DNA of 64,000 nt from an uncultured Parachlamydiaceae bacterium (GTDB lineage Bacteria > Chlamydiota > Chlamydiia > Chlamydiales > Parachlamydiaceae), in assembly GCA_963748975.1 (NCBI GenBank), contig CAVVKX010000032.1, positions 7,860 to 71,859 of the forward strand, written 5' to 3'. Every line of letters begins with the position of its first letter. Position 1 is the first letter of the stretch. The notes beneath the pieces were generated by a model that saw nothing but the letters and a program-made list of their open reading frames with translations, made no database searches and was not told the DNA's origin. Below, one piece after another: positions 30,296-33,484 of this stretch. Position numbers and translations under genes: made by a program.

Positions 30296-30971
30296 TAGTA
30301 TTTTTTCAATAATTAAATGAAAGAAAGAGACGAAAAAGACAAAAAAGACGCAATTAACTCGTCCTTTTTGTCCTTTGATTTGTTTCTAAGCGGTAACTTC
30401 GGCAGTTTCGTCTTCAAAGTCGAACAGAAGTTCTTCTTCATGTTCCTTATCCACGAATTTCTTGACACGCTTGTGATATTCAAAGCCCGTTCCACCAGGG
30501 ATGATATGTCCCATGATGACGTTTTCTTTAAAGCCCATCAAGAAGTCTGTTTTACCTGCACAAGCTGCCTCTGTTAAAACGCGCGTTGTGTCTTGGAAAG
30601 AAGCTGCGGAGATGAACGATTCTGTGCTCAAAGAAGCTTTGGTAATACCAAGTAACACAGGTGTCCCCTGGCCAGCCTTACCACCCTCTTTGATTACTTT
30701 TACGTTTTCTTGCTCAAATTCGCGTTTATCCACTTCTTCACCGAACAGCATACTGGTATCACCCGGATCGATGACACGTACTTTCTTCAGCATTTGACGC
30801 ACGATGATTTCGATGTGCTTATCGTTAATGTCCACACCTTGCAGACGGTAAACTTCTTGAACCTGATTAACAAGGTATTTCTGTAACTCACGCACACCGC
30901 AAACTTCAAGGATTTCATGCGGGATTACAATACCATCCGTCAACTGTTGACCCTTAATGACGTGATCTCCA
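30296..30971. repeat. Direct repeat copy A: rpoC 3' end plus terminator
   Basis: 676 bp identical to 32809-33484 (offset 2513) except 6 substitutions. Confidence 0.97.
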
Positions 30972-30976
30972 TGCAC
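30386..30976 (-). pseudogene. rpoC: Orphan rpoC 3' fragment (last ~194 codons of beta')
   Basis: Protein identical to the C-terminus of 32899-35061 except one L/F; only a GTG start with no clear RBS. Confidence 0.9.
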
Positions 30977-31084
30977 ACAAATATCATGAATTAATTGGTG
31001 TCAAAATATTAGGTATTTGCTATGGTCGCTTGTCTGAGCGTGGAATACTAATTTTTTTAGCAATTAAGACTGAAGGGTGTATAT

Positions 31085-31966
31085 ATGATTCAGAAAGTCT
31101 ACAGTTGGCAAGATGTCATTGCCAAGGTAAAAGAAGAACATCCAGGAGTAAATCAGAGTTCGTTTAAATTTAAACACCTCCTTGCAACTGAAGCTGAAAT
31201 TCACAATTTATCCTGGAACCTAACTAACCAACTGGCTCATTATGTTGGTATTAAATTATACCCAAGGCCAAACGGTCTTCCAGAAACGTGGCCCATCACC
31301 CTTTGTAAAAGTTATCTCGCTCAAAAATATATCAATCCTTTGGATCCTAGTGAATGGCTTGTCGTCATGCACCCTGATGCCTTGGGTTGTTTGCCCTACC
31401 TCATTCATCGCACACCACTAGGTTTTGCGGATGCAAGATGGTTTTACGAAATTGTGCCTGAACTAGCCAACATTGTGAAGGATCCAACGATCGGTCACCC
31501 TTTTAGTATGACTTTCAATGAAGCTGTGAACCAAAAATTTGCTTCTCAACGCAATGGCCGAGGAATGACACCAGGTCAAATCCAAACCATCAATTTGTTT
31601 TTTCAACAGTATGTTCCCGGGTTAGAAGGTGTTTGCTCTACATGCTTTAAAGTGATGCTCCCTATGTCTGGAGCCGGAGAACGTTGGATACATAATGGCC
31701 AAAATGAGAAAACCTATGAAGTCAGGTTGAGTGCTGCAAAACCAATGGGAAAGAACGCACAGCGGACGGAGTATGTTTCTCAAACAATCATTGATCAAAA
31801 TCAAAATCCAGCTAGAAAATACGCCCTATGGGACACCAAAAATTGTCGTGTGGGATACACAAATAATATGAAGCAGGAGGCGACGCATATTCCTTGGGAA
31901 ATATATGATTATAATAAATTCAATGTAGATATGCCCATATGCTTATGCAAACAGGAAAAAAGATGA
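31085..31966 (+). CDS. Unknown 293-aa protein, candidate toxin or effector of the rpoC-flanked cassette
   Basis: ATG after GAAGGGTG; stop overlaps the next start (ATGA); no recognisable domain; a CxxC and a C-terminal CLC. Confidence 0.8.
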   Translation: MIQKVYSWQDVIAKVKEEHPGVNQSSFKFKHLLATEAEIHNLSWNLTNQLAHYVGIKLYPRPNGLPETWPITLCKSYLAQKYINPLDPSEWLVVMHPDALGCLPYLIHRTPLGFADARWFYEIVPELANIVKDPTIGHPFSMTFNEAVNQKFASQRNGRGMTPGQIQTINLFFQQYVPGLEGVCSTCFKVMLPMSGAGERWIHNGQNEKTYEVRLSAAKPMGKNAQRTEYVSQTIIDQNQNPARKYALWDTKNCRVGYTNNMKQEATHIPWEIYDYNKFNVDMPICLCKQEKR

Positions 31967-32361
31967 AAATTCAAGCTTTGATCAATATTATTCAAGATAT
32001 GCTGCTTAACTCGATAGGAGTCTTAAAAGATGAAGAATTCCAAAGAGATATTTGGTTTAGGAGAAATGGCCCTGAAGTAAGCACATATATAGATACAGCC
32101 TGTCATTTTTTTGACACATCCGCATCTATTTTTAAAGATCCAAGCTGTGTTGATTATCTGGGAGAGGAAATTTACTCCAAGCTTAAGAAACTACATGATC
32201 TCCTTAAAGATCACGTCCATCTTACTGAGGATAGAATTTCTGTCGATGAGCTCGAAGAAGATGATCTCTTGAACGACCCTAATTGGCACGATATTCAGGC
32301 ACTTTCTGAAGATGTATACAATAAATTAACAGAATTTATTAAGAGGCATAGCAATGAGTAA
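31963..32361 (+). CDS. Small acidic helical protein, candidate immunity protein 1
   Basis: ATGA overlap at 31963 after AGGA; motifs LKDEEFQRDIW and LLNDPNWHDIQ. Confidence 0.8.
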   Translation: MKIQALINIIQDMLLNSIGVLKDEEFQRDIWFRRNGPEVSTYIDTACHFFDTSASIFKDPSCVDYLGEEIYSKLKKLHDLLKDHVHLTEDRISVDELEEDDLLNDPNWHDIQALSEDVYNKLTEFIKRHSNE

Positions 32362-32725
32362 TTTGCGAACAAATTTTGATGAATATCTAAGAACTTTTTT
32401 TGACGGAGAAATCTATTTTTTAGCAAGTCCGGATTTGCAGCGCGAAACTTGGCAGAATGCTCAAGGTGAACAATTTGCCATTCGCTTGCTTATCTCATTT
32501 GAAAGTTGGACGGTGATTAAAAACAATCGCAATAAATTTAAGTTGTCTGTTCATCAATTTGCCCAAACAGAAAAATTGTTTGAAATGCTTGAGACATTCC
32601 AAGCTGCGCATGATTATCCCATAAATCCACGACAATATGCATCATTGTTAACTAATCCTGAATGGAAAAAGATTCAGAAGTATGCTATGGAAATTTATAA
32701 TAGTATCTCCTCGTCGATTGTTTAG
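32354..32725 (+). CDS. Small helical protein, diverged paralog of the preceding gene, candidate immunity protein 2
   Basis: Overlapping start after GAGG; motifs LASPDLQRETW and LLTNPEWKKIQ align with the upstream gene. Confidence 0.8.
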   Translation: MSNLRTNFDEYLRTFFDGEIYFLASPDLQRETWQNAQGEQFAIRLLISFESWTVIKNNRNKFKLSVHQFAQTEKLFEMLETFQAAHDYPINPRQYASLLTNPEWKKIQKYAMEIYNSISSSIV

Positions 32726-32808
32726 CTTTGGAACAAAATAGCCGATAAACACTGTGTCGGATCCCCAGTTTGACTTGATCTTCTGACCATAATAAATTAA
32801 TAAATAAT

Positions 32809-33484
32809 TAGTATTTTTTCAATTATTAAATGAAAGAAAGAGACGAAAAAGACAAAAAAGACGCAATTAACTCGTCCTTTTTGTCCTTTGAGTTGTTTCT
32901 AAGCGGTAACTTCGGCAGTTTCGTCTTCAAAGTCGAACAGAAGTTCTTCTTCATGTTCCTTATCCACGAATTTCTTCACACGCTTGTGATATTCAAAGCC
33001 CGTTCCTCCAGGGATGATATGTCCCATGATGACGTTTTCTTTAAAGCCCATCAAGAAGTCTGTTTTACCTGCACAAGCTGCCTCTGTTAAAACGCGCGTT
33101 GTGTCTTGGAAAGAAGCTGCAGAGATGAACGATTCTGTGCTCAAAGAAGCTTTGGTAATACCAAGTAACACAGGTGTCCCCTGGCCAGCCTTACCACCCT
33201 CTTTGATTACTTTTACGTTTTCTTGCTCAAATTCGCGTTTATCCACTTCTTCACCGAACAGCATACTGGTATCACCCGGATCGATGACACGTACTTTCTT
33301 CAGCATTTGACGCACGATGATTTCGATGTGCTTATCGTTAATGTCCACACCTTGCAGACGGTAAACTTCTTGAACCTGATTAACAAGGTATTTCTGAAAC
33401 TCACGCACACCGCAAACTTCAAGGATTTCATGCGGGATTACAATACCATCCGTCAACTGTTGACCCTTAATGACGTGATCTCCA
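32809..33484. repeat. Direct repeat copy B: functional rpoC 3' end plus terminator
   Basis: Matches 30296-30971. Confidence 0.97.
32847..32889 (-). terminator. rpoC terminator hairpin (duplicated at 30334-30376)
   Basis: AAAGGACAAAAAGGACG...CGTCTTTTTTGTCTTTT stem followed by a U-rich tail just after the stop codon. Confidence 0.65.

Follow-up and report, generated by a model that had tools for sequence, protein, structure and literature searches.

The window analysed here is a 64,000-nt stretch of DNA from an uncultured soil bacterium of the Parachlamydiaceae (assembly GCA_963748975.1, contig CAVVKX010000032.1, positions 7,860 to 71,859), and our subject is a locus in it at which the 3' end of rpoC, the gene for the beta' subunit of RNA polymerase, is present twice and brackets a small gene cassette.

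The rpoC 3' end is duplicated around a three-gene cassette

When 30296-30971 and 32809-33484 are compared base by base at an offset of 2513 nt, they form a 676-nt direct repeat of 99.1% identity (copies R1 and R2 below), outside which their similarity drops sharply on both sides. The copies differ at 30311, 30379, 30464, 30494, 30608 and 30884 only (n = 6). A repeat search of the window seeded the pair from 30293, and gapped megablast extends it to 30286-30980 / 32797-33494; a genome-wide search found exactly two copies of the repeat, both on contig C32, and no other pair like it. Each copy comprises the 3' end of rpoC, on the minus strand, and about 90 nt of terminator region past the stop codon, and the 1837 nt between them hold three overlapping open reading frames (ORFs) on the plus strand, opposite to rpoC. 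In tblastn the 1400-aa RpoC of a congener matches as a whole at 37115-32902 (residues 685-1400 at 35049-32902), and its residues 1201-1400 match a second time at 30988-30389. The coordinates of these and the neighbouring features are collected in Table 1. A first-pass annotation of the sequence had described the repeat, its offset and its 1837-bp three-gene cargo on the opposite strand, and direct comparison and the ORF list agree with it in all of these; its six mismatch positions likewise held when they were checked base by base.

Four of the six differences lie in coding sequence and, as had also been reported, all four are at third codon positions, three of them synonymous and one exchanging Leu (orphan copy) for Phe (full gene). 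The earlier impression that the differences cluster at the 3' end of the gene is not statistically significant (about p = 0.08, a binomial estimate). Polarising the six differences with 11 relatives failed, third positions being saturated at 75–83% identity. At the Leu/Phe site the three nearest congeners carry Leu, as R1 does. The Phe codon of the full gene (33397) may itself be a consensus error rather than a true difference, since each of the three public contigs that cover this base (3 of 3) shows one mismatch to R2, chlamydial RpoC sequences overwhelmingly have Leu at this site, and the rpoC of this assembly holds frameshift errors (below).

At the inner junction the hexamer TGTGCA (coding sense) is common to both copies once 3 nt (GCG) that only the full gene has are skipped, and the match past a 3-bp gap noted in the first-pass annotation is thus present; without the gap just "CA" is held in common. 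A promoter scan of 30200-33600 gave 15 sites versus 8.7 ± 3.5 in shuffled sequences, none of them clearly driving the orphan ORF, and the same interval holds 2 terminator-like sites versus 2.7 ± 1.6 in shuffles.

Table 1. Coordinates (window positions) and strands of the features at the duplicated rpoC end.
Feature	Position	Strand	Remarks
PPDK_N-like C-terminus gene, 318 aa	29300..30256	-	From the ORF list; Pfam PF01326, E 2e-14; marks the "normal" downstream side
R1, orphan rpoC 3' end	30296..30971	-	Codons ~1206-1400; Pfam RNA_pol_Rpb1_5
R1 subparts: ORF of 196 aa; terminator region	30386-30976; 30296-30385	-
Inner (putatively illegitimate) junction and cassette upstream region	30972..31084	+	TGCACA at 30972-30977, 6-nt microhomology with rpoC, 3-nt offset
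Cargo ORF1, 293 aa	31085-31966	+	Invariant CxxC...H...CxC, many invariant charged residues
Cargo ORF2, 140 aa	31939-32361	+	Overlaps ORF1 by 28 nt
Cargo ORF3, 123 aa	32354-32725	+	Overlaps ORF2 by 8 nt
Spacer 3' of cargo, up to the outer junction with R2 (32808/32809)	32726..32808	+
R2, continuous with full-length rpoC	32809..33484	-	Terminator region 32809-32898 and last ~195 codons
Full-length rpoC, sole complete copy in the genome	32899..37115	-	In three frames through frameshifts near 35050 and 36685

The duplication is present in independently assembled contigs

The source assembly consists of 47 contigs (2.6 Mb, 73% complete), and the contig that holds the locus is 162 kb long. Its rpoC has two frameshifts and its rpoB about nine, and the genes for EF-Tu (tuf) and L1 (rplA) appear truncated; in congeners rpoB and rpoC are intact and RpoC is 1398–1402 aa long. 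To judge from these sequences, the frameshifts in conserved genes look like consensus error rather than pseudogenisation, and reads of related organisms recruited in polishing are perhaps their cause. The frame-broken rpoB and rpoC and the apparently frame-broken tuf and rplA lie at 32899-41250 and 42393-45587, where adjacent lineage-specific genes are intact, and in two sister long-read assemblies in ENA rpoB and rpoC are likewise fragmented and their neighbours whole.

Could an assembly of this kind have made the duplication by joining two co-assembled strains? Its fragmentation, its incompleteness and its frameshifts would be compatible with such a chimera, as would the possible consensus error among the six R1/R2 differences, but short-read contigs that were assembled independently, from several sequencing runs, contain all three junctions of the locus at 100% identity. 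Logan contig L038 (run ERR11630400, 1913 nt) equals 30942-32854 with no mismatch and spans the inner junction, the entire cargo and the outer junction; L039, from a second Logan run, equals 30942-32138 at 100% and bridges the inner junction, L038 and L039 reaching 30 nt to one side of it and 1.1–1.9 kb to the other; and L040 (ERR11630400, 1191 nt) equals 29151-30341 at 100% and bridges 30295/30296, from the PPDK-like gene into the orphan tail. L038 and L040, which come from one run, carry opposite alleles at the 30311/32824 site, each with its own flank, and L040 links the R1 allele at 30311 to the PPDK-side flank. Both contigs end exactly 30 nt past their last copy-specific base; the Logan graph has k = 31, and in such a graph a contig stops at this distance when the sequence that follows stands in two contexts. 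Contigs from four further public runs (soil, permafrost and peat; three studies) match the window at 99–100%. Record 5 of run X1 (73/78 nt), record 9 of run X2 (190/95 nt) and L038 cross the outer junction at 100% identity; the inner junction is crossed also by record 20 of run X4 (20/131 nt) and by one contig that reaches 12 nt beyond it, and the R2 alleles at 32824, 32892 and 33121 are present in independent contigs with 0 mismatches. Some of these bridging runs may share the campaign that produced the window, but not all of them can.

Strain mixing cannot make the joint between the middle of rpoC and the cassette upstream region. For this reason, and because the three junctions are found in independent short-read contigs, we rejected the two-strain chimera that the first-pass annotation had named as the outcome to be checked; it is contradicted as well by the occurrence of both alleles with their own flanks in one run, and the probability that we still allow it is very small. 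These contigs confirm that the duplication exists in nature and did not originate as a chimera in this assembly. Intervals that lack a copy-specific base are up to 276 nt long, and no short contig can tie together both ends of a single repeat copy.

The cassette is a rare, conserved three-gene module

The three cargo genes constitute a conserved module (about 290, 135 and 122 aa) that is multi-copy in a few chlamydial genomes, and full-length members of the family occur in about 6 of 400 Chlamydiota genomes. None of the three proteins has a match in Pfam, PADLOC or PHROGs, and none scores over an NCBIfam cut-off; ORF2 has a weak, sub-threshold NCBIfam match to the SCO4402 family (24 bits versus a cut-off of 50), and ORF2 and ORF3 are weak paralogues of each other (BLASTP E 2e-5). 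ORF1 has 24 homologues, up to 69% identical and all unnamed, in Protochlamydia-like metagenome-assembled genomes (MAGs) and metagenomes, and the residues invariant among them include Cys, His, Asp, Glu and Lys, an enzyme-like set. Where ORF1 homologues lie on longer contigs, ORF2 and ORF3 always come next, in unrelated neighbourhoods and sometimes by insertion sequence (IS) fragments. A TTGACA-like box of other cassette copies aligns with the upstream stretch of the copy studied here (Table 1).

The AlphaFold (AF2) model of ORF1 has a pLDDT of 84.7. Neither Foldseek nor an exhaustive aligner found a significant fold match for it, and no recombinase is among the matches listed. The C-terminal domain modelled alone scored best, at a non-significant Z of 5.7, against one chain from a polymorphic toxin/immunity complex; in the Protein Atlas, a cluster that includes Ntox47 aligned with ORF1 at TM 0.25/0.41, which is no interpretable match. 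Consistent with the first-pass annotation, neither the cargo nor any ORF out to about 15 kb from it encodes an integrase or transposase, and the cargo ends have no inverted repeats, the sole inverted repeat in 28–36 kb being at 29070-29171.

A profile of the ORF1 family weakly matches, over ORF1 residues ~35–110 (31187-31414) and at E 1e-6 to 1e-12, the N-terminal parts of ORFs of 500–790 aa in many genomes of other chlamydial families, which suggests that ORF1 may have an N-terminal domain in common with otherwise different large proteins.

The genome under study has two more copies of the cassette, one on contig C29 that is 27% identical to ORF1 and one on contig C7 that is without the first 175 ORF1 codons. 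The latter (C7:13383-14910) directly abuts, on the side of ORF1, a partial gene copy of 430 nt with 99.5% identity to the 5' part of a 147-aa gene at C28:28273-28702, and on its other side there is a 146-nt match to C28. Exact matches to the 171-aa ORF that this C7 junction creates exist in two Logan runs and one further ENA assembly, and the junction is thus present in independent contigs.

Orphan rpoC tails in other Chlamydiota

We scanned roughly 460 genomes for additional rpoC tails, in three partly overlapping sets (400 from across the phylum, the 73 of the family studied here and the 29 of a second one), using the 196-aa tail as query and, for the second family, the orphan tail of genome G334 (below). 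Two true further orphan tails were found, in G334 and G422, so orphan rpoC tails with varying cargo, which the first-pass annotation had proposed to look for, do exist elsewhere. Double rpoC-tail matches in 19 other genomes were discarded as splits of the gene by frameshifts or contig ends or, once, as a second organism's gene.

In G334, which belongs to another family, an orphan tail (residues ~1211–1391) lies on a 117-kb contig away from the real rpoC and is followed on the same strand by homologues of ORF1 (frameshifted), ORF2 and ORF3. This tail is 87% identical to G334's own rpoC and at most 80% to that of other genomes, and since its closest relative is the resident gene, it arose within its own lineage. 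Relative to that gene it has 52 synonymous and 11 non-synonymous codon differences, with 5/4/56 nucleotide differences at the three codon positions; it also has the marks of a relic, in that its start holds a stop codon and a few otherwise invariant residues are altered. Its 5' boundary is only ~18 nt from the boundary here. The region around the G334 tail and cassette (L061:6564-11688, contig C1) is variable and holds, twice, a 174-nt element that resembles a miniature inverted-repeat transposable element (MITE) and has 39-nt terminal inverted repeats; the same region has a different 177-nt element and a perfect 37-nt direct repeat that brackets 5.1 kb, and these elements are multi-copy in a congener.

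In G422, a genome of the same family as ours, the orphan comprises 140 nt of an rpoC end and shares 86% identity with the resident gene; by eye, most of the differences are at third codon positions. It lies on a 2.8-kb contig (C119:1-2825) as a 55-aa ORF with the last ~47 RpoC residues, starts about 140 codons further on than the other two, and has as neighbours a RelE/HigB-like and XRE/HigA-like pair and an IS-type helix-turn-helix gene. Because the differences of the G334 and G422 orphans from their resident rpoC genes are mostly synonymous or at third positions, both are, as far as the sequences tell, diverged functional alleles rather than duplicates left to decay where they lie.

The first pass had missed that this cassette family also adjoins an orphan tail in a distant chlamydial family and that the breakpoint there is nearly the same. 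Both long orphan tails (here and in G334) adjoin members of the family, the two events are independent and their breakpoints nearly coincide; this parallel hints at something more specific than a generic anchor.

A search for short RpoC-tail proteins among 5.8 billion proteins returned mostly contig-end and frameshift fragments. Two candidates, P0041 and P0030, proved to be no orphans, each being part of an rpoC that frameshifts break up in a long-read assembly. A third, P0029 (L110, an ENA k141 contig of 1242 nt), is a probable chimera and was left uncounted: its start we take to be a Nextera mosaic-end/adapter remnant, past which ~120 nt of GC-rich foreign sequence are joined to the rpoC tail at the QQLTDG codons.

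The rpoC locus in relatives

Each of the 30 relatives examined has one rpoC tail, the best of which is only 83% identical, so there is no close strain with which to compare. The cassette adjoins rpoC in none of five congeners (0 of 5). The comparison of rpoC-downstream regions that had been suggested with the first-pass annotation shows that the region differs among these congeners: in two of the five the next gene is a convergent 323-aa gene, which we take to be a transaldolase, and in two Inc-like and PPDK-like genes come next that are related to those after the orphan tail here. The simplest reading of these gene orders is that the cassette is a newcomer and that the orphan tail would mark the place where the old rpoC end met its old neighbours.

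A cassette beside an intact rpoC, as a donor would have it, was not found among metagenome contigs, species genomes or exact-protein look-ups; the contigs with the closest cassette homologues are short. A candidate adjacency in genome G129, where a contig ends 756 nt past rpoC and several cassette copies lie at contig ends, was rejected when these ends proved to have no overlap.

How the cassette may have reached rpoC

We regard homology-anchored, recombinase-free insertion at rpoC as the best explanation for this locus and give it a somewhat better than even chance. Donor DNA in which an rpoC 3' end lay beside the cassette, from a close relative or as a circularised fragment, would have recombined through that end with the resident rpoC by RecA-type homologous recombination. 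The second end would have been closed either by the same single crossover, if a 2.5-kb circle was inserted (Campbell type), or by an illegitimate joint at the 6-nt microhomology (one-ended, homology-facilitated illegitimate recombination, HFIR). One tail would then stay on an intact, expressed rpoC and the other would be a promoterless relic; that one copy stays with an intact gene follows from the homologous segment being the gene's 3' end. The first-pass annotation had proposed rpoC as such a recombination anchor, and the architecture fits a single-crossover or homology-facilitated outcome (PMC3240628): repeat copies stand on both sides of the insert, one running on into the intact gene and one cut short, and around the compact operon the repeat's inner end is sharp inside rpoC and its outer end just past the terminator. 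The genome has an intact recA. In Escherichia coli conjugation, 56 of 60 recombinants gave a PCR product diagnostic for circularised DNA entering by a single crossover, and sequencing of 14 of them showed lacZ-end duplications of 109–950 bp (PMC3240628); HFIR has been put forward as a model for displaced type VI secretion system (T6SS) effector-immunity modules and for Rhs orphans (PMC5361080); and lateral transfer by homologous recombination and ComEC-dependent uptake are both established in Chlamydia (PMC8936141). On this explanation the locus is a known recombination outcome in a new natural form and not a new kind of element.

Several observations weigh against homology-anchored insertion. 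No donor or cassette-free sister strain was found, and for this reason we only infer the foreign origin of one repeat copy, the direction of transfer and the recombination pathway. The ComEC Pfam family (PF03772) has no match in this 73%-complete genome. The 3–4 coding differences are too few to prove that R1 and R2 originated as alleles: against in-place divergence their pattern has an estimated p of about 0.05, and one of them is possibly an assembly error; a strong case for alleles exists only for the orphans of G334 and G422. An illegitimate joint would lack clean microhomology, a 3-nt gap being required, and the near-coincident breakpoint in G334 is unexpected if breaks are random. Finally, the integrated order, as opposed to a 2.5-kb circle beside a single-copy chromosome, depends on how the window itself was assembled, and that assembly contains indel errors in rpoB and rpoC.

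The G334 parallel speaks for a cassette-directed, site-specific event, in which a module product or site breaks or recombines rpoC at fixed conserved codons, one-ended repair from a cassette-bearing template copies tail and cassette, and the severed resident tail becomes the orphan; the cassette would then be a homing-like selfish module with an essential gene as its landing pad. Both of the long orphan tails in the scan adjoin one cassette family in spite of its rarity, each orphan resembles its own lineage's rpoC, which implies two independent events, and the two 5' boundaries fall ~18 nt apart in a 4.2-kb gene (for this coincidence alone a rough estimate is p about 0.01). The invariant residues of ORF1 would suit an enzyme, and the C7 cassette, too, abuts part of another gene on the side of ORF1. 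Given the rare family at both long orphans, the nearly equal breakpoints and the C7 junction, the module may promote breaks that spread it. Nonetheless, family and fold searches detected neither a nuclease nor a recombinase among ORF1–3, most cassette copies are far from rpoC and have no rpoC fragment within 6 kb, the orientation of the tail to the cassette is opposite in the two genomes, the MITE-like elements that bracket the G334 tail could have set its boundary, and the third orphan, in G422, has another breakpoint and other cargo. Weighing these, we think a cassette-directed event unlikely. A related thought, that the cassette is a new kind of selfish module landing in rpoC or else that the orphan beta' C-terminal fragment itself contributes to what the module does, perhaps by serving as a decoy to some cargo protein directed at RNA polymerase, seems to us unlikely.

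The repeat might also have been made in place with no import, if a cassette from elsewhere in the genome entered at a stalled fork or staggered break by the rpoC end, fill-in synthesis or template switching doubled the 676 bp, and the six differences arose later. The two other cassette copies are possible sources, the 99.1% identity fits a young event, and the C7 copy too has patchwork junctions; but the paralogous cassettes are only 27–68% identical and so include no recent source, a neutral orphan should gain mostly first- and second-position changes whereas all coding differences here are at third positions, and the other two orphans clearly diverged under purifying selection. In-place duplication is, in our estimate, also unlikely. 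A 2.5-kb circle of rpoC tail and cassette that exists beside a single-tail chromosome and was threaded into it by the assembler would hold both novel junctions (30971/30972 and 32808/32809), and short contigs cannot separate it from the integrated form. Both copies, however, are in one 162-kb contig, whose indel-type errors suggest a long-read assembly with reads that would span 3.2 kb, no replication gene is recognisable, and the recurrence of the junctions at 100% identity across several studies fits a fixed chromosomal allele, all of which makes a circle improbable.

Comparison with known systems

Homology-anchored insertion at rpoC resembles Campbell-type insertion-duplication, which is known from insertion-duplication mutagenesis and from the lacZ-end duplications in conjugation (PMC3240628): in both, a direct duplication of a gene end flanks the insert (109–950 bp there, 676 bp here), one copy is continuous with an intact gene, no site-specific recombinase is needed, and insert plus one repeat can be written as a circle. 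It differs in being a natural event in an essential gene of an obligate intracellular bacterium, in having a three-gene cassette as its "vector", and in leaving without explanation the origin of a circle that joins mid-rpoC to the cassette upstream region. With HFIR, known from Acinetobacter, S. pneumoniae and P. stutzeri (via PMC5361080 and PMC3240628), the locus would have in common one conserved-gene anchor, a putative microhomology joint and the import of foreign genes without mobility genes, whereas the outcome expected of HFIR is a deletion in the recipient (PMC3240628) and here there is a duplication and a joint with a 3-nt gap. The displacement of Rhs, contact-dependent inhibition (CDI) and T6SS modules is alike in that an incoming module follows a conserved segment and the old 3' end is pushed downstream as an orphan that retains part of the conserved gene, and the cargo here, a larger protein with two small paralogues, has a toxin-immunity-like layout; in contrast, the anchor is the housekeeping gene rpoC rather than a toxin gene, the cassette is convergent with rpoC, and no toxin or immunity family was recognised in the cargo, for which the two structural alignments given above are the only hints.

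Islands and integrative and conjugative elements (ICEs) that use an integrase also lie at the 3' end of a conserved gene (for tRNA or a protein), which they restore so that it stays intact, and have flanking direct repeats, but here there is no integrase, the repeat is 676 bp and the insert 1.8 kb long; the att cores of integrase elements are typically tens of bp. Transposons and IS elements are unlike this locus, which has no transposase, no terminal inverted repeats and a duplication of 676 bp. The minimal mobile elements of Neisseria (PMC3787668, PMC3082526) are, like the cassette, small and without mobility genes and lie between conserved genes, at sites that hold different cassettes in different strains and exchange them by homologous recombination in the flanks; unlike here, where one side appears homologous and an orphan tail results, their homology is two-sided and there is no duplication. 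Free-standing homing endonucleases of phages, which cut a conserved neighbouring gene and are copied in by repair, could explain a fixed break in a conserved gene a few hundred bp from the insert, and its recurrence in unrelated lineages, but no nuclease domain or fold was found in the cargo (no fold match exceeded Z 5.7, and ORF1 does have the invariant CxxC...H...CxC) and most cassette copies are not at rpoC.

If homology-anchored insertion is correct, gene import is displayed here in a clean natural case, for which the host's homologous recombination suffices together with a long, highly conserved essential gene as the anchor. Several independent metagenomes verify the locus. Environmental chlamydiae have few classical mobile elements and their gene gain is poorly understood. 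The orphan rpoC tails in three chlamydial lineages are searchable scars with which such events could be mapped, in principle dated, and their donor and recipient alleles paired, and the recurring link to one three-gene module raises testable points: is the module addictive or toxin-like, and does it target rpoC? On the practical side, a duplicated fragment of a marker gene such as rpoC can confuse single-copy-marker quality checks and phylogenomic pipelines.

Other features of the window and genome

At 23096-28881 the window holds three tandem paralogues with a common N-terminal region and long coiled-coil-like tails, which have weak SMC-type matches only. Members of this family are also found 3' of rpoC in two congeners, where they mark the variable region downstream of the gene. 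Elsewhere in the genome, C15:9020-13758 and C6:52648-59240 contain local direct duplications with units of ~2.4 kb and 93–99% identity, which look like ordinary tandem gene duplications.

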